Part shown: piece after piece, positions 31,577 to 48,302 of the stretch | How the letters are laid out: each line of letters begins with the position of its first letter | Numbering within the stretch: the stretch's first letter is position 1 | Source of the DNA: Promethearchaeota archaeon | Lineage (GTDB): Archaea; Asgardarchaeota; Lokiarchaeia; Sigyniarchaeales; SOKP01 | Length of the DNA: 64,000 bases | Reading direction: 5' to 3' | NCBI GenBank assembly: GCA_048941285.1 | Contig: JBHLNS010000004.1 | Span: 82,431-146,430, forward strand | The notes under the pieces: model-generated | The model's database searches: none | What the model saw: only the letters and a program-made list of their open reading frames with translations | Told to the model about the DNA's origin: nothing | Program-made: the position numbers and the translations under genes

Positions 31577-32089
31577 CTAATCTCGAGGTAAAAACACACT
31601 AACTATACCTAGGCCACCACCGACCAATAATAGATATCCTCCAATATCTACTAGATCATTAGGTAGTATTTGTAATGGAAATATTCCTAATAGGTTATTT
31701 GTGCCAAAAACATTCTCTATCCATAAAATTCTATCGAGTATATCACTACTTGTAAATAACAATGCTATCCCAATACCAATCGGCATAATTGAACCTAAAA
31801 TTGCTAATGTCCGGTTTTTTATACCTGCTATTTGTATTACTCCAGAGGCCAAGAAAAAGATTAAGAAACCAGCAATTATATAAATGGCAAATCCTGGTAT
31901 CCCTAATAGTATTCCATATGCGTCAGCGTTTGTAAACATGTTTGGGAGATTATTTATTATACCTAAACCATTGGAATAAAATGTTGGTGGTATATTTGGT
32001 GGAATATCCATTCCATACCAAGAAAAAACATAAGTAGCGATAATCGTAACTATTCCTGCTACTAAACTAGTTAATTTTCCAGATTCCAT
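31577..32089 (-). CDS. Hypothetical 4-TM membrane protein
   Basis: Gly-rich hydrophobic segments. Confidence 0.75.
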   Translation of the reverse strand: MESGKLTSLVAGIVTIIATYVFSWYGMDIPPNIPPTFYSNGLGIINNLPNMFTNADAYGILLGIPGFAIYIIAGFLIFFLASGVIQIAGIKNRTLAILGSIMPIGIGIALLFTSSDILDRILWIENVFGTNNLLGIFPLQILPNDLVDIGGYLLLVGGGLGIVSVFLPRD

Positions 32090-32279: not shown

Positions 32280-35270
32280 TTAAAATGTCTGCCTAAAGAT
32301 ATCCATAATGCTTTTCTTGTAAAAATATTTCACTAAAATTATATAAATTCCAAGAAATGCGAATGAAATTGATAATATAAACACTCTTAATAAAGTTTCT
32401 ATGGGGATTGAAAAAATAATAGGCATTTCCGTCATTAAACTCATATTAGATTCAAGTAAATATCCAGTATAAGTACCAATGATTGTCCCCATAACTCCCG
32501 CAGAAAGTAGAGTAATCATGCTTTCAATTAAAAACATATTACGAACGTTTCGAGTTTTCATCCCCATCGATCTTAGTATCCCAATCTCAAATTTTCTTTC
32601 TAAAATAACTGCATACATGCTGCTTATAAGGCCAAAAATGCTAATGATTATTGTGAATGTTAAAATCAATTCCATCAAAAACGACTGTCTTTCAGTCATC
32701 GCTTTAAAAAAATTAATCTTGGAAATTGCATCATCAATAATGATATCCTTGTCTTGATACATAGTATTTATATCATCTTTAGTCTCCTCAATGTTTTCTT
32801 CAGTTTTATCAACAAGGTTTAAAAATATTTTATCTATTATCATATTAGGGGCTCCAGGGTTTTTAACCTTCATCAAACGCATGTAATTCTCTAAAGAAAC
32901 CATAACACCTCCGCCATTAGCAGACATTTCATTACTTCGAAAGTTGTAAAATCCAGGAATCCCCCCCGAAATTCCAACGACCCGAAATAATGTGACATTC
33001 CCAGGTGCTAATGGCCCATCATCATAATCTTCAGGTCTAAAAAATGTTAAACGAATATATTCTCCTACTTCTTTAATTCCTACATAATCCGCAATCGATT
33101 TAGCAATTATGCATGTATTATTATGTGTGAATAATTCATTAAATGAATAATCAGTGTTACTACCTTGGCTTTTCCAAATCAACAAATTTTGATCAATTAA
33201 ATCAACAAAATCATTATTTATACCTATAAATCCTGCCTCCACAACATCAAAATCCATCATGTCTCCTGCTGTTGTTTTGAATTTTGAATCATCTTCCTCT
33301 CCAAAAAATTGAAATATGTTCATCATTTGTTCGGTGGAATCACTACTAAAACCTACTTGCCCCTCACTAACTTCAAAAAGTGTTGCCAGAGTTGCTTGAA
33401 GATCAAACGTATTATGAAGTGAAACAGCTAACTTATCTATACCTGGTAAGTTTTCTAATTCGTTAACCATATCAAGTGTTAAAGCACTTTCTGGGGTATA
33501 AAAATTTTGATTCATTAAAACTAAATCTGATCCATATTGAAATCTTAAATTCAGATCCATATTTTCAGATTCCATTTTAGTTACACTTGTAATAAAAAAA
33601 ATAAAAGAAAAACTAATAGAAAACATAATCACAGTGCTCGTATTACGTCTTCTATATCGTTTTAACGAAATGCTTATAATATTGCTATATTTTCTAATAG
33701 CAGGTGATATTATACCTAGAAAGACTTTTTGAATTATTGGAATCACTCCTATTGAGGCAAAAACCAATCCAATTACAATAGCTGCTAATAAGCCAATAAA
33801 AAGTGCTGAAGTTAACATAAAATCTCCAGTAACAAATATATTTGGCATTAAAACAAACACAATCATTCCAATTGTAGCTATCGCAATACCTGTAAGAAAA
33901 CTTTTGACATTCATACTTCCTTCCTTTTTTATTTCCCATCCTTCTTCCTTAGTTTGAAAAGGTGTAATTGATTTAATAATATCTAACTTTGCTGTTTTTA
34001 AAGCGGGTAATAAAGATATTGCCAATGATACAAATGTTCCTATTGAAAATGTCATTATAAGCGTATCAGGCTGAATAACCCATTCTACTTCAGTGAATTC
34101 AAATTGAAACTGATATAGAGGAAATATAGACTGAGCAATCGGTTTCATCAATGTAAACCCGAGGATCATTCCTAATATTGACCCAATTAAACCTAACATC
34201 AATCCCTCAAATAAAACCATTTTAATACAATAAGCTTTTCTACTTCCAACTACACGAATAACCCCAAATTCTCTAACTCGTTCTTCAACAGAGGTAGATA
34301 GAATGCTGTTTATCAAAATACCCGTTATAAGTGTGGAAAGAATTGTGATAAACCAAAACATTATTGTCACTGTCATTAAAAGAAACTGACCACCCTCAAG
34401 TTCTTCCAACTTTGGTAGACTTACTGTAAACTCGTTCAGATCTAATCTTTCTTGGATATTAGATCCAATTTTTCGAAGTCTTCTGGTTGTTAAATCCAAA
34501 TTACTTGCGTCATATACAGCTCTAGGGTTATTTATAGTTCCTACTATGAAATTTATTAAACTATCTCGTTTTAGGAAACTCTGAGCTTGTTGTATATTAA
34601 CAAGAATTAATGAATTTTCAAATTGCATAAACTTAAGATCTTGAATGCAAATTTCAACTACAGTTAAGTTTAACTCATACGTTTGATATTTTAAATATAT
34701 ATTATCTCCTCTACTTACATTAAGGATTTGTGCCACATTCCATAATATAACACATTCCCCATTATTTGGCTCATCATCATATATCTCATTTGTTTCTTCT
34801 CCTTGTTCATCCACAATTATCAGATCTCCCATATTTCCATTTGTAGCCTCTTCAATAAAGTTAAGGCCGTATAATTGTAGCGAGCCACTAGTGTTTATAT
34901 TTTCTGAAGTAGTCTCTACCAACATCATAATACGAGGAAATAATTTTTGAACCCCCTCAACATCTTCTAATTCATTATTAATAATCTGCTCATCAAAGAA
35001 AGGATCATAAGTCAAATCTGTTTGAATAGTTCGTGTAATCATAATATCTGATTTTCCTGTTGATGATGTAACATATAAAAGATAATTGTAATTTACTGTG
35101 TCATTTAACATTCCAATAGTAGTTAATAGAAATAATGAAACTGCAATTCCACATACCCCAAAGAGAGCTTTAGCTTTATCTCTCTTGAGATCAAGCCAAG
35201 AATGTTTGATAATTTGTAGATTTATTCGCTTTCTCAGTTTATACAAGAAATTTCTTAAATCCATAATCAC
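32280..35270 (-). CDS. MacB/FtsX-type ABC transporter permease (two FtsX repeats, two large extracellular domains)
   Basis: ERVREFGVIRVVG and ERKFEIGILRSMG coupling motifs; TM1-ECD-TM2-4 architecture present twice. Confidence 0.92.
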   Translation of the reverse strand: MIMDLRNFLYKLRKRINLQIIKHSWLDLKRDKAKALFGVCGIAVSLFLLTTIGMLNDTVNYNYLLYVTSSTGKSDIMITRTIQTDLTYDPFFDEQIINNELEDVEGVQKLFPRIMMLVETTSENINTSGSLQLYGLNFIEEATNGNMGDLIIVDEQGEETNEIYDDEPNNGECVILWNVAQILNVSRGDNIYLKYQTYELNLTVVEICIQDLKFMQFENSLILVNIQQAQSFLKRDSLINFIVGTINNPRAVYDASNLDLTTRRLRKIGSNIQERLDLNEFTVSLPKLEELEGGQFLLMTVTIMFWFITILSTLITGILINSILSTSVEERVREFGVIRVVGSRKAYCIKMVLFEGLMLGLIGSILGMILGFTLMKPIAQSIFPLYQFQFEFTEVEWVIQPDTLIMTFSIGTFVSLAISLLPALKTAKLDIIKSITPFQTKEEGWEIKKEGSMNVKSFLTGIAIATIGMIVFVLMPNIFVTGDFMLTSALFIGLLAAIVIGLVFASIGVIPIIQKVFLGIISPAIRKYSNIISISLKRYRRRNTSTVIMFSISFSFIFFITSVTKMESENMDLNLRFQYGSDLVLMNQNFYTPESALTLDMVNELENLPGIDKLAVSLHNTFDLQATLATLFEVSEGQVGFSSDSTEQMMNIFQFFGEEDDSKFKTTAGDMMDFDVVEAGFIGINNDFVDLIDQNLLIWKSQGSNTDYSFNELFTHNNTCIIAKSIADYVGIKEVGEYIRLTFFRPEDYDDGPLAPGNVTLFRVVGISGGIPGFYNFRSNEMSANGGGVMVSLENYMRLMKVKNPGAPNMIIDKIFLNLVDKTEENIEETKDDINTMYQDKDIIIDDAISKINFFKAMTERQSFLMELILTFTIIISIFGLISSMYAVILERKFEIGILRSMGMKTRNVRNMFLIESMITLLSAGVMGTIIGTYTGYLLESNMSLMTEMPIIFSIPIETLLRVFILSISFAFLGIYIILVKYFYKKSIMDIFRQTF

Positions 35271-35286
35271 ACTCTATTAATTTTTT

Positions 35287-38200
35287 TTATATATCTAGAA
35301 CGCTAAATTTCTTTTTTTTACTTTTAAACTCTCTCGGAAATTTACCTTCTTCGGCTAAAATTGCCTCAACTTCTTCTTTTTCCTTTCTGATTAACCTAAC
35401 ACCTTTACATTTTTTATTTTTACAATAATAATTCTCTCCTGGTGCGTCTTTTAGAAACCATCTTCCACAGTTCGAGCAGTTATATGCAGCATAAATTTGG
35501 TCATGCTCACAAATAGGGCACATTATATCAAATTTATTCGAGTAAAACCATGATCTACATGATTTGCAGTATAAGGTTAAGGGTTTTTGAAGTTCTTCTT
35601 CTTGTTCGATTAATTCTATTCGTTTTATTACTTGATCTTTATCAATATCTTTTAATCTAATTTTTTCAGCACGAATATTTTTTATATTTTGAATCCAAAT
35701 TTTTCCTTTCTTCTCAGCAAAGATAAAAAGTGATATCATTACAACACCTATAACTCCGATTAAAATAATATATGGCCCCCATAGAAGCCACCATCTTACA
35801 TTATTCACTGATACGTTTATAAATGACTCTGCTTTATTTCCTTCTTTATCATAAGCCACTATTCTAATTTCAAATGGGCCATCATTATAATTGGCTGTAT
35901 TCCAATTAAATTCTAATAATCCTATACTATTATTAAAATTGAGTTTACTTCGATCAACACTTATATTATTTAGAAATATATAAATTCTTGATTCATCTAA
36001 TCCAATATTATCAGTTATATTTGCTCTTATCACGACTAATGATTTAAGATTAATCTCAGGTTCAGGATTCATTATTCTTATTTCTGGAGCAATAAAATCT
36101 GAAGATTTATCATAACCTAGATAAATATTAGATAATAGCCATCCATATCCTATTCCAATTATATTATTATTTGAATGTAAAGTGAACATCACCATTATAT
36201 CTTCTCCAGAATACTGAGATATATCAAATCTTTTACTTCCAGAGAGATCCTCACTATCATATGTAAATTCTTTAAGAATAATCCATTTTTCTCCAAAATC
36301 TTTTGATATTGAAATAATGCACCTATCTAATTGTTCTTCGGGTTGATAAAATTCATTTTGTAAAGAAATTTCATAATCAAATTCAAGATAGACTTTATAT
36401 TTACTTCCGAGATGTAAAGGACGAGTTATTAAATTACTATCCCAATTAATTCCATATCCCTGTTCAAAACCACCATAACTCTGGCCTCTACCTCCATATA
36501 GGTATGGTTGGTTAAGACGGGTTATTGGATGCCAAGTGTTATCTGCTTTAAACCAAGCAGTATTTTCTTTTGGAGATGGGCTACCTGATATATAATAGTC
36601 ATCTAGGTGTGTATTTGAAAATTCATATCCAATATTTTTGCCATCTTTAAATAGATTAAAATATAGAGGATTTGGGTTAATAAATTTAAAAAGAGAATTA
36701 TTTTTATTATATAATGGGGTTGAATTCACATATTTACCATCAGAAACATGAAATCTGAATGACTGACTTGAAATTTCTTCTAATAATACAGATCTGGTAA
36801 AATAAATTCCCCAATCTATAAAATTATTTGAGCTAGCATTCCAATCTCCATAAATATTATACATTGAATAATTAGTACTATCTAATTCTAGATATACAAA
36901 TTCAGGATAATTATTATCTAAATCAAAATATTCCAAAGAAAAAGTATACTTCTGGTATTTAGAATCTTGAGTGAAAGGGATATTATTATTTATATCAAAT
37001 TTTATTAGTGGGTAATTCTCATTAGTATAATTTACTATTGCAAAATAATCCAAAATAAGCCCTTTATAATTTACAGAATCAAATTCCTCATCAAGAGCAG
37101 TATCGAATCGAAATTGCACGAAATTTCCAATATATTGGGTTAAATTTATTTCTTCCATAAACCATTCCTGTTCAATATTTGTATAGGTTTCTAAAGTTAC
37201 CCAACCTGTCCAATTTAGATTGATTTGTAAATAAATAAAATCCCCTGAGTTCAAACTTACTCTAAATCCAAATTTTGCATAAGGTTTAGTATGTATCTGG
37301 TTGATATCTGTTAAATTGTACAAAGGACTGATTAATGTGCCATTTGGATACGGATCCTCAGTTACTCTAATAGGTTGATATGTATAATTATCCGGATTAT
37401 TATGATAAGTACCAAAATACATGGAATGCCAAGAATCTTTATATATTCTTGATCTATTATCATTAATATTATTTTGAGACATTATTTCCCATCCAATGCC
37501 AGTATATGTCCAATTACCAATTCCATCATTAAAATTATGATAATTAGGAAATCGAATACTATCTGTTGGGAATTCAATTTTAATATTGAATTGTTTACTA
37601 TATGGAAATCTTGTTGTAAAAGAACCGTCACTCGCAACAAAAAAGTAATGATATATTCCAGATCTGGGAAACTGAATATAATCACTCATAAAGATTGCCC
37701 CATCAGTGTAAATGTTATCCAGAGCATAAAGTTGAGTTAAGGAATAATTTCTTGATAATTCTAAAATAGATACATAAACCTCTTGAGGTGGGACATTTGA
37801 AGTATCATTATCAAAATATTCAATGTAAAATCTATAACTATCAATAGTATAGTTTTTCTGTGGCTGGCCTCCCATATATTCTTGAAGACTCATTACAGTT
37901 GTATTTTTAGACCCTTCAAAATAATTAATTTCAGCTATTCTCAATTCAGGCCTAAAAAGATTATTAACTGTTGAAATATTTAAGGTAAAATCACTAGTTC
38001 CCTCAATTGCTTTCACAATTATAACACAGTTAGTCTGATTATTTTTTGGAATAAAATAGAAATTATCAAAATCCCCATACCATTTTCGTGATGACTGTAG
38101 GAGAATTGGTTCTCCATATTGATTAGTTTCATTTGAAAATAAGAAAAAATCGAAATTTGCTTCTGGGGTATCAACTGATAAACTAAATGAATACTGAACA

Positions 38201-40113
38201 TCTTCAGTTAGTTCAATTTGGCGAGCAAACACATGTTTACCCAGAGGATTTACTTCGGAACTTACTAAATGATCGCTAACTACACTATTTACCATCATAT
38301 TTCTAATAAGAGCATCAATCGCAGCCTGAAGATTTATTCTTCCATACCCTTCATGAATATCTTTTAAACCAACAGTCATTGGAGAGATGGATAATGATGG
38401 AGAATATTCACTTTCATCAACAGATGTAGAAGGATCATCTTCTCTTTGAAGATTGGTTTCTGAAGCTGTCATCAATAAAATTGCCTTAACATATTTAACA
38501 TATTTTGTTAAATCAAGATTATTCCATTGATTCCAATTATTCCATCTTGCTTCTATTAATATATTAATAGCTGCCGATACTATTGCTGTTGCAATTGAAG
38601 TTCCATAGGATGCAGTAGCTTTATCAATTTCTTCACCAGCTCCAATTATCGAACGGTGCCCCGGTATTTTACTTCCACCAGGAGCAACAATATCTGGTTT
38701 AATTATATTTTCCACATTTTCACCTATACTACTATAAGATGTAACTTGATCTTTATCATTTATAGCTCCTACTACTATGGCATTTTTATTTTCTGCTAAT
38801 TTATTTAAGGAATTTGAAAATTCAATACCGTTATTACCTGCCGCAATAACTACTAAAACACCAGTCTCAATTACATCATCTATGGCGGCATTTGCAGTTA
38901 TTAGATCTTCTCCTAAAGTACCAATACTTAAGCAAACACTAATGATATGATCTATATCCCTATTTTCGATTACACTAGCTAAAGCTGATATTAAATCGGA
39001 TGTATATCCTCTTCCAGATTGATTTAAAATTTTATAAGCAACAATTTTTGTAGCATTGGCTATCCCTGTAAAATAATTTCTGTTTTCAATTGGGTATTCA
39101 GGAAAATAAGTAATTTTTGTATCGAAAGAAAAACTAGGTTTGCTTTGAATTAATTTATGATATTTCAGATATAGATCATAAACACCTAGGTTATCTTGGG
39201 TGAGAGCTTGGTTTATAATATAATAACTACCAGGAATTTCATTATAAGAATTTTGAACTAAAGTTTCATTATAATATAATTCAAACCAAAATTTATCGAT
39301 TCCGGGAGTTTCTAATTCCCAGGAAGAATTAATTAGAATATTTGAACCTACTTTTGACGCATTAAAAGAGAAAATCTTTAACTTAAAATTTCCTGGGGCT
39401 GAGTATTCTCCAAATAATTCGATATGAGAATAATTCCCTTTAATTTTAATTGTTGAAGGGATAATTGAATCATATCGATCTATTCCTGTTCCAGTAATAA
39501 TTGAAGATATTAAAGTACCATGCCCATTATCATCAGATATCGGTTGAAAATCGACAAAGTTTTGCCAACCTACAATATCTCCACTTAAATCTAAAGGACT
39601 ATATCCATCTGGAAAAAAATTATGATTAGGATTAATACCAGTATCCAATACTGCGACAGAAGAGTCTGTATTACCTTTTAGTCCATCTAAAAACCATGTT
39701 GAGTTGACAGCACCAACTTGAATTGAGGCATAATTCATTTGGGCTTCTAATATTTCATTATTTTCTATTGTGGCATCCGGAAAATCATTTTGAAAAGCTG
39801 TCTTATTCGATTCTAAAGGCATAATACCTGCAAATCCTGAAGTGGATATAAATTTATTATTCCATTCCTCATTAATAGTTCCTCCATAATATTCAAAACG
39901 AGATGTGACTGAACTATTATATGATTGTTTCTTAAAGGAGACAATAATATTTTTACTATATAAACCTGAATTTAAAGGATTTTTCTCCTTTTGTGAGTTA
40001 TTTGATAATTGAGAAGTGAATCTACTTGAATTGGGGAAATAATGAAAAATACAAGTAAATGAAATTATTAAAATAATCAATAAAATAATGGAATATTTCT
40101 GTTTCTTCATCAA
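35287..40113 (-). CDS. Membrane-anchored multidomain S8 (subtilase) peptidase with a cytoplasmic Zn-finger tail
   Basis: Signal/TM, I9-like propeptide, VLDTG, HGT, AAGN, KPDIVAPG, GTS, beta-rich repeats, a TM, then CKSC/CPIC/CSNC/CKNKKC. Confidence 0.9.
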   Translation of the reverse strand: MMKKQKYSIILLIILIISFTCIFHYFPNSSRFTSQLSNNSQKEKNPLNSGLYSKNIIVSFKKQSYNSSVTSRFEYYGGTINEEWNNKFISTSGFAGIMPLESNKTAFQNDFPDATIENNEILEAQMNYASIQVGAVNSTWFLDGLKGNTDSSVAVLDTGINPNHNFFPDGYSPLDLSGDIVGWQNFVDFQPISDDNGHGTLISSIITGTGIDRYDSIIPSTIKIKGNYSHIELFGEYSAPGNFKLKIFSFNASKVGSNILINSSWELETPGIDKFWFELYYNETLVQNSYNEIPGSYYIINQALTQDNLGVYDLYLKYHKLIQSKPSFSFDTKITYFPEYPIENRNYFTGIANATKIVAYKILNQSGRGYTSDLISALASVIENRDIDHIISVCLSIGTLGEDLITANAAIDDVIETGVLVVIAAGNNGIEFSNSLNKLAENKNAIVVGAINDKDQVTSYSSIGENVENIIKPDIVAPGGSKIPGHRSIIGAGEEIDKATASYGTSIATAIVSAAINILIEARWNNWNQWNNLDLTKYVKYVKAILLMTASETNLQREDDPSTSVDESEYSPSLSISPMTVGLKDIHEGYGRINLQAAIDALIRNMMVNSVVSDHLVSSEVNPLGKHVFARQIELTEDVQYSFSLSVDTPEANFDFFLFSNETNQYGEPILLQSSRKWYGDFDNFYFIPKNNQTNCVIIVKAIEGTSDFTLNISTVNNLFRPELRIAEINYFEGSKNTTVMSLQEYMGGQPQKNYTIDSYRFYIEYFDNDTSNVPPQEVYVSILELSRNYSLTQLYALDNIYTDGAIFMSDYIQFPRSGIYHYFFVASDGSFTTRFPYSKQFNIKIEFPTDSIRFPNYHNFNDGIGNWTYTGIGWEIMSQNNINDNRSRIYKDSWHSMYFGTYHNNPDNYTYQPIRVTEDPYPNGTLISPLYNLTDINQIHTKPYAKFGFRVSLNSGDFIYLQINLNWTGWVTLETYTNIEQEWFMEEINLTQYIGNFVQFRFDTALDEEFDSVNYKGLILDYFAIVNYTNENYPLIKFDINNNIPFTQDSKYQKYTFSLEYFDLDNNYPEFVYLELDSTNYSMYNIYGDWNASSNNFIDWGIYFTRSVLLEEISSQSFRFHVSDGKYVNSTPLYNKNNSLFKFINPNPLYFNLFKDGKNIGYEFSNTHLDDYYISGSPSPKENTAWFKADNTWHPITRLNQPYLYGGRGQSYGGFEQGYGINWDSNLITRPLHLGSKYKVYLEFDYEISLQNEFYQPEEQLDRCIISISKDFGEKWIILKEFTYDSEDLSGSKRFDISQYSGEDIMVMFTLHSNNNIIGIGYGWLLSNIYLGYDKSSDFIAPEIRIMNPEPEINLKSLVVIRANITDNIGLDESRIYIFLNNISVDRSKLNFNNSIGLLEFNWNTANYNDGPFEIRIVAYDKEGNKAESFINVSVNNVRWWLLWGPYIILIGVIGVVMISLFIFAEKKGKIWIQNIKNIRAEKIRLKDIDKDQVIKRIELIEQEEELQKPLTLYCKSCRSWFYSNKFDIMCPICEHDQIYAAYNCSNCGRWFLKDAPGENYYCKNKKCKGVRLIRKEKEEVEAILAEEGKFPREFKSKKKKFSVLDI

Positions 40114-40125
40114 TTTAAAACACCT

Positions 40126-43100
40126 CTATTCATTATCTTTCATTATTTCATTAATTTCTTTATTTTGTTCTACATCAGTTATACCAACTTTAGAGTTTTT
40201 CGACATTATATTTAATTTTCCTCTTAAAGTATTATCTATCTTGAAAATTGATTCCCTTGAGCTAAGTTCAAAAATGTGCATTTCAGATCTTTCATATGCT
40301 CTTCTCTTTTTTTTATATTTTTTAATTTGCCATAAATAGATACTCAAAATTAGTAAACCTAATAATATTGGTAAAGCTAAATAGAAAAATTGTATAACTC
40401 TTGGAGTTATAATTTTTACTATTACTATATTTGAAGTTGCTTCATTTTCATATAAATAGTAAAATTTAATACATGCTGGCTTTAAACTTACCAAATTTTG
40501 TCTTCTACCTTTAATTGTATAATTAAACACTACCTTTTCACCTGGCTTTAAGGAAATTATTAACTTAATTAAGTTTCCTTTCATTAAAGAGAAATCAGCT
40601 TGAGAATAACTAATCATATCATTAACCTTTATATTCTCAATGCTAATTGTTCCTGTATTCTCTACTTCTATGAATACGATTATTTCATCTCCTATTTCAA
40701 TTTGATTTTTACTAACAGATTTTGTAATTTTAAAATCAATCTCTCCTAAGATTTTGAATGTTGAACTAGATATTTGTAGAGTTCTACTTTCTAAACTCTT
40801 AATGAAATTTATAGGAGGATAATAATATCCTTTCCACCCGATCTTTCTCAAAGTAATATTAAAGGAGATTGAATCATTTATGTCTTCAAAATAAGGTATA
40901 AAAGTGTCTATTCTTCTTAAATCTCCAAATTGATCATTCATCATTATGGAAAGATCTGGTATCTTTATACCTTCTGGGTCAATTTTTTTAATATTTATGG
41001 TAAGATTAAAGACTTCTCCGATTGCCGGGGCAATGTTATTCAAGTTAGCATAACTAATGTTAATAATTCTAACAAATGGAAATTTATCTTTGTAATTAAC
41101 AGGTGCTGAGATAAAAACTTGGTTAGTGAAACTGATTAATTTAGAAGAATTTCCTCCTTCAACATTTTTTGGATTATGATAAACTATTGAAATTTCACTT
41201 AAAGATATTGAATTCGGGATATAAAATGTAAAATTAATTGTTTTTTCTTCTGAAGGAGCTAATTTTGCCAAATAATATGATAGATTATTATTATTAATAG
41301 TGAAATTGTTAATTAGATCTACAATACCGGGGATTAATACTGAAATTGTTATATTCTTGGCAATTTCTGATCCGATATTCTTAAATTTAATGAAATAGGT
41401 ATTTAATTCACCTGGTTTGGTGCTGTAATCACTTAAATAGGAATTAGCAACAATTGATGCTCCTCCATAAGTACATAAAGGTATTGAGTTAGAGGTTCTT
41501 TCAAATTGTATATAACCTGATGAAGACCCATATATTACCTTTGATCCAGAATCATCATTAAAATTAATATCTCTTACCGAAAATTCAATATCTAAATCAT
41601 TGATAGAGATATTAAATTTTACTGTTCGAGACACAGTTATTTTAAAAAGGATTGTAAAGTTTTGTTGATCTAATGGATAAAATAGCCAGTCTAAACTATT
41701 ATTTTGATGAATAATTGAGAATGTCCATGTATTATTTATATTAGTTTCTAAATAAGGAGTCATATCTTTAAATTCTTCAATATTAAAATCGAAAATTTCA
41801 AAATTAAATGCTTCTAAGTCTATAGATGCATTTATATCTACAATAAAAGAAACTCTTTCTAATTTATTATTTTCAAAATCAATATCTGTTGTATTTTTAA
41901 AGATAAAATCTATGTCAACTCTTTGTTCAAAGAATTTTTCTACAGAACCAATTATCCAACTTTCATCATCAGTTGACAGAGCCATATCCGCGTTAGTACC
42001 ACTGAGAGGTATTCCAGAAATAATTTCAGGAGTTGTAGGTGCAGATTGGATTGTGAAATTGTCACGGTAAAAAGGAGTAAAGGAATCTAAATTAGCAATT
42101 GAATAATTATTGATTCTATACGATATTAATTTTCCAGGTTCTAATTTCCAATTATTATCATTCCATATGCTATAAGTATTTGTAAAAATATCTTTTAGTT
42201 CATTTGGAGTAAATCCTAAAGCATTTAAGGCTGTAATTAATTGAGGATAACCTGTAATAATAATATCAATAACATGGGCCATATCTTCATTATAGGGTGA
42301 TAAATTTGTTAAATTAAGGAAATCTGGATAAAACGTGTCAAAAATTCCGATACCAAAAGAATCAAAATAAAATATTCTTGGATCTTCATTGAAATTAAAA
42401 AAATCTTCTATAGAATCATATTGATTAGGATATTCTACACGAACTACATCCCATATAACATCTTGAAATTGATCTGCTAGTGGTTGATTTCCAAATGTAA
42501 GAAGAAGGAAAAAATCATTAAGTTCAATTGGAATTTGAGTAGGAACCCCCCATATAGTATCATTACCTACATTTTCTGCTGTTATATAATAAGAAAAATT
42601 ATGAAATGCACCATAAGTTGCATTTCCTCCAACAATTTCCTTTTTGAGTAATAAATTAGGTTCAGAATTAGAAATTGTATAGGTTACTGATAAATCTACT
42701 ATTGGATTCACAATTCCAGTTGGAATAAAAGATATCCCTTGGAAACCACCTAATTGTAAGAAATTTATTATATCACTAGAGTCTTTTAAATTAACTGGTT
42801 TAACATATGAACGCTTAATACCCTCCTCATCAACCCAAAAAAAATCAAATGAATAATCTTTAAGATCTTGAGTATCAAAATCAATCCCTGCAAGATAAAA
42901 AAGGAGTCCTAGTTGTTCTAGAAGATAATCGCTAAATTTAAAATTCTTTGGAGTTACATCAATAATTTCTGTACATAATATATTTATTTCAATATCACTC
43001 ATAAAAGCACCGATTAATGCGATATAGATTTTTTCACTAGGTGATAACGGGGCTCCGTTGTAACCTAAGGCATCCCATAAATTGAATTCATATTGATTTT

Positions 43101-44082
43101 TCCCAACTTTTTGTATTCCTTCATCCAAGCCTTCATATTGAATTGAAATAGTTGTGTAATGTGAATTATTTGAAAGTGTAAATGAACTTAGGATATCTAC
43201 AAATTGTTCTAATTCATCTTCAGAAACTGTAGCATTAAATAATTCTCCAAAATTTTCTAAGATAATGTCAAACTGATTAATTAGGTTCTTAATCTCTAAA
43301 TTTTCTAAGAAAGATAAGTCTAGAGCATCTAAATTAAAGTTTACCTGATCCATTGAGATATCATATTCTCCTTCAAAAAAGTCTAAAGAATTAAGGATCA
43401 TAATAGATGAAGAAATATAGTTATTTTGAATATAATCTTGGCTAGTTAAGCGGTTTATATCTAAAGCACTCCAATATCCATCCATTGGAAAATTATTCAT
43501 AAGCTCATCAAAAAAACACACCCAATTTGGACATAATCCAATAAAAGGAAAAAAGTTGGGTTCTGATACATTAATCATTATTAGATCAATCTTGAATTTT
43601 CTTCTGATTATTTCTAAAGCTCTTTCTGCTCTCATTTCAGCATCTTCAGGATTCAAGACATCATCATAAAAAAGAAATCCAACAAAATTGTTAAATCCTA
43701 CAAGAAATTGGGAGGGAATGTTACTCTCAGTTAAAATTCTTGGAAATATCTCAGGATTTATTCCATTTGACGCACTTATTAATAAATTACTTTTATAAAA
43801 GGCAGGATCATTTGAATCAAATTGAGAAAGAATATTTGTATCGTTTGTAAAGAGAGATTGCTTAATTATTGATTTATTCCCCGCAACAAATGCATTAATC
43901 TTTTCAGCATAAAGATCTGAGCCTGCAACATCAGAGAGATTTAAATTATTATATTCCGACCCTAGTACTAAGTCCTCTTTTATATTTTTATGTTTAATAG
44001 TTGTTTCTAAAACTAAATTTAAAGGGGTAATAAAAACCGTTGAAAGTAAAATGCAAATGATAATCAATTTATTTTTTTTCAA
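40126..44082 (-). CDS. Large surface protein with DUF11/BatD-like Ig domains and a C-terminal TM anchor
   Basis: Signal peptide; repeated ..K.......Y.I...N.G modules (ITAENVG, IKFKNIG, IEVENTG); TM FFYLALPILLGLLILSIYLW followed by a basic stop-transfer. Confidence 0.8.
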   Translation of the reverse strand: MKKNKLIIICILLSTVFITPLNLVLETTIKHKNIKEDLVLGSEYNNLNLSDVAGSDLYAEKINAFVAGNKSIIKQSLFTNDTNILSQFDSNDPAFYKSNLLISASNGINPEIFPRILTESNIPSQFLVGFNNFVGFLFYDDVLNPEDAEMRAERALEIIRRKFKIDLIMINVSEPNFFPFIGLCPNWVCFFDELMNNFPMDGYWSALDINRLTSQDYIQNNYISSSIMILNSLDFFEGEYDISMDQVNFNLDALDLSFLENLEIKNLINQFDIILENFGELFNATVSEDELEQFVDILSSFTLSNNSHYTTISIQYEGLDEGIQKVGKNQYEFNLWDALGYNGAPLSPSEKIYIALIGAFMSDIEINILCTEIIDVTPKNFKFSDYLLEQLGLLFYLAGIDFDTQDLKDYSFDFFWVDEEGIKRSYVKPVNLKDSSDIINFLQLGGFQGISFIPTGIVNPIVDLSVTYTISNSEPNLLLKKEIVGGNATYGAFHNFSYYITAENVGNDTIWGVPTQIPIELNDFFLLLTFGNQPLADQFQDVIWDVVRVEYPNQYDSIEDFFNFNEDPRIFYFDSFGIGIFDTFYPDFLNLTNLSPYNEDMAHVIDIIITGYPQLITALNALGFTPNELKDIFTNTYSIWNDNNWKLEPGKLISYRINNYSIANLDSFTPFYRDNFTIQSAPTTPEIISGIPLSGTNADMALSTDDESWIIGSVEKFFEQRVDIDFIFKNTTDIDFENNKLERVSFIVDINASIDLEAFNFEIFDFNIEEFKDMTPYLETNINNTWTFSIIHQNNSLDWLFYPLDQQNFTILFKITVSRTVKFNISINDLDIEFSVRDINFNDDSGSKVIYGSSSGYIQFERTSNSIPLCTYGGASIVANSYLSDYSTKPGELNTYFIKFKNIGSEIAKNITISVLIPGIVDLINNFTINNNNLSYYLAKLAPSEEKTINFTFYIPNSISLSEISIVYHNPKNVEGGNSSKLISFTNQVFISAPVNYKDKFPFVRIINISYANLNNIAPAIGEVFNLTINIKKIDPEGIKIPDLSIMMNDQFGDLRRIDTFIPYFEDINDSISFNITLRKIGWKGYYYPPINFIKSLESRTLQISSSTFKILGEIDFKITKSVSKNQIEIGDEIIVFIEVENTGTISIENIKVNDMISYSQADFSLMKGNLIKLIISLKPGEKVVFNYTIKGRRQNLVSLKPACIKFYYLYENEATSNIVIVKIITPRVIQFFYLALPILLGLLILSIYLWQIKKYKKKRRAYERSEMHIFELSSRESIFKIDNTLRGKLNIMSKNSKVGITDVEQNKEINEIMKDNE

Positions 44083-47123: not shown

Positions 47124-48302
47124 TTAATTTAAAATTAATAATTCTCCCTCAATTTGGCCAAAAGAGTTGTTTTCCTCAATTAGTTCTTGAAGAATATCAT
47201 TAAAATGTTCTGGTAAATTCATAATTATAGAATTTGGAATATTATTTTTAATATCACTTATTGGAATTTCTTTTTTACCTTGATTTGAATAAAGATATTG
47301 AAAAATCTTACTCTTACATTTTTCTTTATTAATGTCAGTCTCCTGCCTCCTTTTAAGCTGCATAATCTCAGTTTCTTTTAAGCCACCAATTTTACCTTCA
47401 TGTGTAAGTTTTCCATCTCTCATATGAAAAACTCTGGTTGCGAATTCTGAAACTGCGGCATCATGACTTACAGCAATAAAAGTTGCCCCACGTTTATTTA
47501 AATCTCTAAGAAGATTTAAAACCATGACGCCCGTTTTAGAATCTAAATCACCTGTAGGTTCATCAAGAACGCAAATTGCTGGGTCATTAGCAAAAGCCCT
47601 TGCTATAGCAACCCTTTGTTGTTCACCTCCACTCAATTCAGAAGGTGTATGATGTGCCCTTTCGTCTAAACCTACTAATCGCAACAAATCCATCGCTTTT
47701 TTTCTTTTACCTCGACGGCTTAATTTTCCTGAAAAATGTAAAGGAACCATTACGTTTTCCATAGCAGTCATCTGAGGAAGAAGGTTGTAAAATTGAAAAA
47801 CAAATCCAATTCTTTCACGTCTTATCTCTGCTAAATCATTATCTGAAAGCATTGAAATATTACGGCCCTCTAAGAATATCTTTCCTCGAGTGGGGGTGTC
47901 TAATCCACCGATCAAGTTTAAGAGTGTTGTTTTTCCTGAGCCTGATGGCCCCATTATATCAATAAAATCTCCATTATCTATCGTTAAATCAACACCTCGT
48001 AATGCTGCAACGGCTGTTGTTCCTAAAAGGTATGTTTTATGGAGATTTTCCACCACAATCAAATGATCATAGTCCTTTCCAGCCACTTTATCCTCCTTGA
48101 CATCCTTTTTAATTTTTTTTTTTTCAATACGAGATTGAGAAAGAATTTCTTCTTTCATATGTTTAGCTTCTTCTTCTTTCCTCCTTTTTTTCCACTTTTT
48201 AAAATTTTTAGAAAGTTCACCTTTCCAAATAGCTAATTTTCCCGTTTCTTCTTCAAATTGCTCCATTAAGGGTGTTTTTTTTATTATTGGTGATTTAGAC
48301 AT
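47124..48302 (-). CDS. LolD/MacB-type ABC ATPase with N- and C-terminal extensions
   Basis: GPSGSGKT, GFVFQFYNL, LSGGEQQRVAIARA, DEPTGDLD and SHD motifs. Confidence 0.95.
   Translation of the reverse strand: MSKSPIIKKTPLMEQFEEETGKLAIWKGELSKNFKKWKKRRKEEEAKHMKEEILSQSRIEKKKIKKDVKEDKVAGKDYDHLIVVENLHKTYLLGTTAVAALRGVDLTIDNGDFIDIMGPSGSGKTTLLNLIGGLDTPTRGKIFLEGRNISMLSDNDLAEIRRERIGFVFQFYNLLPQMTAMENVMVPLHFSGKLSRRGKRKKAMDLLRLVGLDERAHHTPSELSGGEQQRVAIARAFANDPAICVLDEPTGDLDSKTGVMVLNLLRDLNKRGATFIAVSHDAAVSEFATRVFHMRDGKLTHEGKIGGLKETEIMQLKRRQETDINKEKCKSKIFQYLYSNQGKKEIPISDIKNNIPNSIIMNLPEHFNDILQELIEENNSFGQIEGELLILN
48113..48124 (-). repeat. A12 homopolymer in the 5' coding region of the ABC ATPase
   Basis: 12 consecutive T on the + strand (GAA AAA AAA AAA ATT on the coding strand). 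Confidence 0.85.

Follow-up and report, generated by a model that had tools for sequence, protein, structure and literature searches.

A membrane-anchored subtilase with a conserved, predicted cytoplasmic double zinc-ribbon tail, encoded beside a type VII ABC system in a Promethearchaeota archaeon

Introduction

Mycosins (MycP) of type VII secretion are S8 subtilases with a C-terminal transmembrane (TM) anchor and are part of an ATPase-driven membrane machine; to our knowledge, their cytoplasmic end is very short and a zinc module is absent from it. Furin and S1P/SKI-1 are type I membrane subtilases whose cytosolic tail contacts cytoplasmic machinery, and the Tk-SP-type subtilases (PDB entries 3afg and 9ues, depositor name ‘Subtilisin-like serine protease’) are enzymes which we take to be soluble and secreted. 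Here we analyse a subtilase gene in a 64,000-nt stretch of DNA from a Promethearchaeota archaeon (GenBank assembly GCA_048941285.1, contig JBHLNS010000004.1, positions 82,431 to 146,430 of the forward strand), which we call the window and whose G+C content is ∼29% throughout. An earlier note, made from the letters of the window, had singled out positions 35287–35800, which hold the stop codon and residues ∼1439–1608 of the subtilase, and had proposed that this part is a zinc-ribbon tail inside the cell that links outside proteolysis to an inside partner. We find that the tail is as conserved as the catalytic domain and that its gene stands in an operon with a type VII ATP-binding cassette (ABC) system. 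With a probability of roughly one half, the subtilase is a component of this machine and the tail docks the protease to its cytoplasmic face.

The closest described machines are YbbAP-TesA and FtsEX-EnvC. An excerpt of the structural report on YbbAP-TesA of Escherichia coli (PMC12646458) describes a solved 10-TM type VII ABC transporter in which the outside domains of YbbP carry the hydrolase. As far as this excerpt goes, the likeness to YbbAP-TesA and FtsEX-EnvC consists of a LolD-like ATPase, an FtsX-type permease that has 10 TM segments and two outside domains, the gene of a hydrolase or activator beside them, and mechanotransmission (PMC12646458). Unlike these systems, the one in the window has two permeases, a self-anchored subtilase of 1608 aa with a folded tail that is predicted to be cytoplasmic, and a second anchored giant protein, and its host is archaeal.

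Results

The tail is predicted to be cytoplasmic and is as conserved as the catalytic domain

The topology of the subtilase was read from hydropathy, charge and the distribution of N-X-S/T sequons and cysteines. Just two segments passed the hydropathy threshold (residues 8–26 and 1448–1466), and K/R residues flank both, with KKQK on the N-terminal side of the first and AEKKGK directly after the second. The ectodomain (1400 aa) has 33 sequons and the tail one, and of the 12 cysteines eight lie within 54 residues of the tail and three in residues 27–1440. Because hydropathy, charge, sequons and cysteine distribution all agree, the tail (143 aa) is predicted to be cytoplasmic, whether the N-terminal segment is cleaved or not; nowhere else in the protein is conservation as low as in that segment (identity 0.19, with 24% gaps, in a full-length alignment of 111 rows). 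The single TM helix and the receptor-like (type I) topology that had been proposed are thus borne out by the two hydrophobic segments, their flanks and the 33:1 ratio of sequons.

The basic linker that the earlier note had described directly after the TM helix is also present, with four K/R in its first 15 residues, and it is modelled as a helix. In the AlphaFold2 (AF2) model of the tail (m4053275ba888, 40-row alignment), which has a predicted local distance difference test score (pLDDT) of 86, the TM helix extends to about residue 1501; behind it lie beta-hairpins in two pairs and then a short helix, before an end of low confidence; for the zinc module alone, AF2 gave a pLDDT of 82. All strings that had been quoted were found, namely CKSC (1516/1519), CPIC (1532/1535), CSNC (1546/1549), CKNKKC (1564/1569) and the KKKKFSVLDI end. 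The two halves of the cysteine-rich part form a tandem repeat of the type CxxCxxW[FY]...C(P)xC, and alignment of half 1 with half 2 by hhalign gave an E value of 1.9e-4 over 24 columns. Basic residues outnumber acidic ones in the tail (32 K/R, 23 D/E).

A word-indexed search with residues 1420–1608 returned 130 proteins at E ≤ 0.01, most of which are ∼1500–1630 aa long; those that carry a name are S8 peptidases of Promethearchaeota, Lokiarchaeota and other Asgard archaea. When the last 200 aa were aligned (121 rows, in which the protein of the window is counted twice), the eight tail cysteines were invariant in 121 of 121 rows, and W1522, P1533, D1538, Y1544 and L1574 likewise. The same eight positions were occupied by cysteine in 40/40 rows of an alignment that reaches sequences of 25–35% identity, and the spacing of the last pair (C1564-x4-C1569) becomes CxxC in distant orthologues. 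The C-terminal KKFSILD motif has a narrower range; it is present in the family of the window's organism and its close relatives that we label f1, except for one genus (g2), and is absent from the orthologues of families f2 and f3. Identity to the query over 111 rows was 0.61–0.71 for tail residues 1501–1600 compared with 0.67–0.75 for the catalytic domain, and the tail is as conserved as the catalytic domain. The earlier note had named two results that would speak against it, a cysteine-rich tail placed outside the cell and cysteines that are not conserved in homologues; neither was found, because the cysteines are conserved and the pattern of hydropathy, charge, sequons and cysteines does not place the tail outside.

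The tail resembles a double zinc ribbon with its own signature

No Pfam family matched the tail above its threshold. DZR (PF12773) gave 13.4 bits against a cut-off of 27.3, and Zn_ribbon_6 (PF07191) gave 14.8 bits (with a 171-aa piece) to 16.6 bits against a cut-off of 25; among 28 sequences of the module, Zn_ribbon_6 was matched at E ≤ 0.1 by 16 and DZR by 8, all below threshold. Foldseek gave no PDB match at E ≤ 0.001, be it with the entire tail or with the module alone, the best E value being 0.19. With VIA-align the best structural match of the module was to residues 698–812 of PolD DP2 (Z 5.2, root-mean-square deviation 5.6 Å over 73 residues), and the next, at Z 2–3, were single ribbons of the rubrerythrin, MCM, Rpb12 and L40e type. 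The profile of the module against PDB sequences reached at best E 0.0016 over 33 residues, with an HVO_2753-like protein, and look-alikes of the DZR and zinc-ribbon type in Protein Atlas scored 0.80–0.83, under the level of 0.9 that is needed for more than a lead.

The CxxC pattern and the hairpins in both models would be compatible with a zinc-ribbon (rubredoxin-knuckle) fold, with metal ligation at the level of prediction. Two consecutive CxxC...CxxC ribbons are common to the tail, to DZR and Zn_ribbon_6 and to the zinc module of PolD DP2, whereas the tail has a signature (CxxCxxWF, CPxC, D1538, Y1544) and a distribution of its own. Because the structure searches gave no significant match and the Pfam matches are sub-threshold, we regard the tail as a distinct kind of putative double zinc ribbon, which would presumably bind two Zn. 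The earlier note had offered RING, DZR or another fold. Of these, the double-zinc-ribbon pattern stands, with DZR itself below its cut-off, and RING is not supported: His does not occur at any of the eight putative ligand positions, the two halves repeat each other in tandem, no RING family occurs among the 25 families most often matched by the 28 module sequences, and the RNF4 rows obtained with the module profile against PDB sequences are at chance level (E ≥ 0.3).

The module is restricted to the subtilase family and to vWA proteins of sister lineages

A HMMER search with the tail gave 45 matches at E ≤ 1e-3 among 1.84 billion representatives. Twenty-four of them were scanned, and eight of the nine long ones (1456–1790 aa) carry PF00082; where a non-subtilase match is made up of several matched segments, the protein is Cys-rich or repetitive and the match looks spurious. 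In a set of 400 genomes of the phylum, strong matches to the tail were confined to the order of the window's organism, where they occur in 103 of the 134 f1 genomes, in the single genome of f2 and in 13 of 14 of f3. Two of the carriers, G135 and G138, are single-contig genomes. The own genome held no paralogue of the tail, its other rows being at E 0.23 (inside an open reading frame (ORF) read as an L-aspartate-oxidase-like flavoprotein) and E 0.59.

In two sister families belonging to the same class, soluble vWA proteins end in weaker matches to the module (E 1e-9 to 1e-14). Each of these proteins has an N-terminal vWA domain, with which a weak match of the Ssl1 type goes along, then a Cys/His-rich, RING-like middle part and, at the C-terminus, the double zinc ribbon. 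When the module of the vWA proteins was compared with the own genome, the sole match was the tail of the subtilase (E 2.7e-8). Apart from this family of subtilases, only cytoplasmic vWA proteins of sister lineages were seen to carry the module. Because the same module ends soluble vWA proteins, it appears to be portable and to be cytoplasmic in this other context as well, which supports the view of the tail as a putative cytoplasmic interaction domain.

A different function would be self-association. The helix could form a coiled coil and the ribbons could clamp two or more subtilase chains together, so that the tail would stabilize the protein and set the oligomeric state of the ectodomain with no other partner. 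A helix of 63 residues is modelled as continuous from the TM segment onwards, coiled coils gave the best structural matches when the whole tail was compared (Z 6.3–6.7), and the tail of the orthologue in genome G130 (locus L051:5687-10771, minus strand, a frame of 1695 aa) has the eight-Cys module twice in succession, a hint at a scaffold role. However, coiled-coil matches under Z 8 are expected for any long helix, and the whole-tail results of VIA-align, dominated by long helices, are uninformative. Moreover, self-association leaves unexplained both the module on the soluble vWA proteins and the invariant surface residues W1522, D1538 and Y1544. We consider it unlikely, yet worth keeping in mind beside the docking of the tail to the ABC machine.

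The catalytic domain appears to be of prokaryotic type

The protein matches Peptidase_S8 (Pfam PF00082) with 118 bits and E 6.5e-34 against a cut-off of 21.8 bits, and it has the catalytic residues D157, H198, the oxyanion N427 and S506 in the order that defines S8 members, within the motifs DTG (157), HGT (198), GNNG (426–429) and GTS (504–506). An insert of ∼135 aa separates H198 from N427. Each of the four residues is invariant (111/111 in the full-length alignment), and the catalytic triad and oxyanion Asn had been read correctly as intact. The remainder of the ectodomain, like the protein as a whole, has 50–75% identity over the 111 orthologues, with gaps nearly nil.

The closest solved catalytic domains are 9ues (E 2.8e-25) and 3afg (E 7.3e-25), matched by residues 218–394 of a 491-aa query piece, and among PDB sequences the classical subtilisins are near as well. 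Kexin, furin and S1P are all absent from the 60 best of the 92 PDB matches, and no P-domain family of Pfam was found in the subtilase at E ≤ 0.1. Assignment to the kexin, furin or S1P type was therefore rejected, since no P-domain was found and the best solved relatives among these 60 matches are 9ues, 3afg and subtilisins. The catalytic domain thus appears to be of a prokaryotic, Tk-SP-like type, with the D/H/S triad common to both; the chains of 3afg and 9ues are just 427 and 539 residues long and have no counterpart to the 900 aa of extra ectodomain, the TM helix and the zinc-ribbon tail. Similarity to mycosins is of a generic S8 kind (TIGR03921, E 2.9e-16), and the score of 59.5 bits against the NCBIfam equivalog cut-off of 278.75 does not make the protein a mycosin. 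Because the catalytic domain is nearest to 9ues and 3afg and a P-domain was not found, the eukaryote-like aspect would be a topological analogy and not one of descent, and a furin- or S1P-like relationship, beyond the likeness in topology that the earlier note had drawn, is not supported. The tails differ too, since that of the subtilase is modelled as a folded double zinc ribbon whereas those of furin and S1P are disordered and carry sorting motifs.

By analogy with those tails, the module could be a sorting or turnover signal that is read by ubiquitin-like machinery, by the ESCRT system or by vesicle machinery, which would control where the protease resides or whether it is taken off the surface. 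The fusion of the module in sister lineages to vWA proteins with a Cys/His-rich stretch, RING-like as read from their sequences, would fit such a role, and so would the basic C-terminal motif, which is modelled at low confidence as is typical of a short linear motif. Against this, the 25 families that the 28 module sequences match most often include no zinc finger that binds ubiquitin, the catalytic domain does not fall into the kexin or S1P type, and the vWA protein of the own genome (393 aa) has no module. A sorting signal seems to us highly improbable.

The subtilase gene is embedded in a conserved type VII ABC operon

Five genes follow each other on one strand in the order ATPase, permease 1, DUF11 protein, subtilase and permease 2 (Table 1). 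The features of a type VII (MacB/FtsX) ABC system are all present, namely the FtsX permease domain, the MacB-type outside domain and a nucleotide-binding domain (NBD) of the LolD/MacB type, with MJ0796 (E 1.2e-68) and LolD (E 1.3e-60) as its matches. The TM regions of the permeases match LolC and MacB (E ∼1e-8) and also LolF, YtrF and FtsX, and YbbP was not among their sequence matches at E ≤ 1e-3. Hydropathy indicates ∼10 hydrophobic segments and two large outside domains for each of them, an arrangement like that of YbbP.

Linkage was examined in 27 related loci from named public metagenome-assembled genomes. Permease 2 lies downstream of the subtilase gene in all 27, and the DUF11 gene lies upstream in 22; four of the five misses are contig ends and the fifth is L016. 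The complete five-gene order is also present in G135, G138, G149, G175 and G276, and in G130 it is split over two loci; the subtilases of G135, G138 and G130 are only ∼29% identical to that of the window. Among 20 genomes without the tail, 15 are also without the DUF11 protein, including several that are 98–100% complete, and the positive controls all have it (4/4). That subtilase and DUF11 protein are usually missing together is as expected if the set is gained or lost as a unit and is dispensable.

In L016 (CP070831.1; G189:C1), which is a single-contig genome, a C-terminal part of the subtilase adjoins permease 2, and ∼1.5 Mb lie between it and the N-terminus of the ATPase, either through a genuine rearrangement or truncation or through a join made in the assembly.

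An alternative to docking is that the tail is a signalling output. Substrate binding or self-cleavage outside would alter the contacts of the tail, or the tail would be released by intramembrane cleavage, and it would then act on nucleic acid or on a regulator, much as membrane-tethered anti-sigma factors do. The receptor-like topology, the excess of basic residues in the tail and the weak likeness to the nucleic-acid-associated ribbons of PolD DP2, MCM and the HVO_2753-like protein would be in line with this. However, there is no DNA-binding domain beyond generic ribbons and these similarities are below significance, the operon is without a regulator or an intramembrane protease, and signalling fails to explain the tight linkage to the ABC machine. 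We regard it as very unlikely.

Table 1. Coordinates of the subtilase features, the neighbouring genes of the operon and the module proteins of sister families (positions in the window unless a locus is named)
Feature	Position	Strand	Basis or detail
Subtilase gene, 1608 aa	35287..40113	-	TTG start, stop 35287-35289; PF00082 match
Hydrophobic segment at the N-terminus, residues 8-26, preceded by KKQK; signal anchor or signal peptide	40036..40092	-	Hydropathy 2.47
S8 catalytic domain, residues ∼150-560	38434..39666	-	Pfam in two stretches, best 345-553
Remaining ectodomain, residues ∼561-1440, weak Ig-like Big_7 match at 1343-1416	35794..38433	-	PF17957 E 8.4e-4, below cut-off
TM helix, residues 1441-1465, WWLLWGPYIILIGVIGVVMISLFIF	35719..35793	-	Hydropathy 2.82; helix in AF2 model, pLDDT 86
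Helical linker, basic/acidic, residues 1466-1505, one helix continuous with TM	35599..35718	-	AF2 model, helix over model residues 2-64
Predicted zinc ribbon 1, C1516-x2-C1519 ... C1532-P-x-C1535 (CxxCxxWF...CPxC)	35509..35568	-	Cys, W1522, P1533 121/121; beta-hairpins in both models
Predicted zinc ribbon 2, C1546-x2-C1549 ... C1564-x4-C1569	35407..35478	-	Cys 121/121 and 40/40
C-terminal helix ∼1579-1588 and basic end with KKFSILD-type motif	35290..35406	-	Low model confidence at extreme end
ABC ATPase, 392 aa, LolD/MJ0796-type NBD ∼80-308, extensions 1-79 and 309-392	47124..48302	-	Sequence matches
FtsX/MacB-type permease 1, 994 aa	44098..47082	-	PF02687 108.7 bits, PF12704 39.6 bits
DUF11/CARDB-type giant surface protein, 1318 aa, C-terminal TM, ∼68-aa cytoplasmic tail	40126..44082	-	Pfam, hydropathy
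FtsX-type permease 2, 996 aa, start 17 nt downstream of subtilase stop	32280..35270	-	PF02687 111.6 bits
vWA + module proteins, 691-724 aa (stop-to-stop frames)	L047:2636-4708 (-), L048:1231-3402 (+), L049:1030-3129 (+), L050:1813-3900 (-)		Genomes G123, G124, G125, G127

Some further observations concern the operon and its surroundings. Residues 1120–1212 of the DUF11 protein match the Pfam family TRAP_beta (translocon-associated protein beta) with 30.2 bits against a cut-off of 22.4. A multi-TM protein of 170 aa is encoded just downstream of the operon (31577–32089, minus strand) and is found at the same place in 7 of the 27 related loci, and a Ham1-type gene lies downstream on the opposite strand in 26 of the 27. 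In a sediment metatranscriptome (run X20), two contigs of 151 letters fall inside the subtilase gene (36519–36665 and 36669–36817) and differ from it by 1 and 0 letters, respectively. An RNA library can contain DNA and these contigs carry no expression level, and the match is a weak hint that the gene is transcribed in a near-identical strain.

The ATPase as candidate partner of the tail

The ATPase of the operon has an extension on either side of its NBD. At least 120 relatives were listed, all but eight of which are exactly 392 aa long (the eight being of 380, 389 or 391 aa), and they are 81–100% identical with both extensions included; the extensions thus appear to be as conserved as the core. 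The earlier note had named the ATPase extension among the possible inside partners. When a complex of the ATPase with tail residues 1466–1608 was predicted, both given as alignments, the median score was 0.34 (runs 0.43, 0.34 and 0.26) compared with 0.00 for the best of three controls, which was graded as weak support; the runs share at least 72% of their contacts, and the pLDDT of the partner is at least 67. In the calibration of this method, 116 of 157 solved complexes and 2 of 215 mismatched pairs attained the mark; the passes at 0.60 or under comprised just 18 of the 157 solved complexes and both of the mismatches. The comparison with the controls points weakly towards a link between tail and ATPase.

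The N-terminal extension of the ATPase is specific to f1, as is the KKFSILD end of the tail, and in seven of seven genomes the two occur together or not at all (G000, G175 and G276 have both, whereas G149, G135, G138 and G130 have neither).

Motifs like that of the first ∼50 residues of the ATPase (48066–48302, minus strand; EEETGKLAIWKGE..K.F.KW) recur elsewhere. Two tandem proteins of ∼277 aa (L059:4342-5175 and L059:5509-6345; contig C29 of G000) carry the motif together with an H-box-like stretch and a receiver-like C-terminus, and across the order ORFs of ∼280–330 aa match it in 146 of 154 genomes. An undescribed small N-terminal module appears to be common to the ABC ATPase and to signalling-type proteins.

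Several points weigh against the docking of the tail to the machine and to its ATPase. The operon is dispensable, and 6 of 53 genomes of the same genus are without the tail; L016/G189 hold only the last ∼700 residues of the subtilase, far from the ATPase. At the level of score obtained, a predicted complex is wrong in the majority of cases unless it was probable to begin with, and the prediction returned no interface. The co-occurrence of the N-terminal extension with the KKFSILD end may reflect one evolutionary event and was given no weight, and the N-terminal motif is also found on the other proteins of ∼280–330 aa, some of them in genomes without the subtilase. Finally, zinc ribbons are generic, and the best structural match, that to PolD DP2, is weak.

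Discussion

We propose that the subtilase is one part of a machine that further comprises a LolD-like ATPase, two YbbP-like 10-TM FtsX permeases and the DUF11 surface protein. The protease domain and ∼900 residues of beta-rich, probably glycosylated domains would be outside the cell, and a single helix would cross the membrane and go on for ∼40 residues in the cytoplasm, forming a rigid stalk, which would bear the two tandem four-Cys zinc ribbons (presumably with two Zn) and a short basic motif at the C-terminus. From this arrangement we infer that the tail would serve as a protein–protein docking module, most likely onto the ATPase. The ATP-driven mechanotransmission of the permeases would then be physically coupled to proteolysis outside, as in FtsEX-EnvC or YbbAP-TesA, with the difference that the hydrolase would be held from inside. 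In a more detailed form of this proposal, which we put forward tentatively and judge to be rather improbable as it stands, the extensions of the ATPase would grip the tail and its C-terminal motif, and the ATP cycle would switch or reposition the protease, and perhaps the DUF11 partner, in a form of inside-out control.

A full-text literature search, supplements excluded, found no description of this protein, of the operon or of the architecture. An excerpt of PMC9834061 characterizes Loki-type Asgard archaea as having no ordered S-layer and as displaying many unidentified ‘complex surface proteins’. Because the operon is kept across one order, it is a defined and testable candidate for one such Loki surface assembly. 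It also extends the theme of a type VII ABC motor combined with an outside hydrolase, in that the hydrolase here would span the membrane and show a folded zinc module to the cytoplasm. If the tail docks on the ATPase, this would be a simple prokaryotic case of a single-pass membrane protease that is wired to a cytoplasmic energy source. If, moreover, the ATPase controls the protease, extracellular proteolysis would be regulated from the inside out, on a surface without an S-layer and in the closest prokaryotic relatives of eukaryotes.

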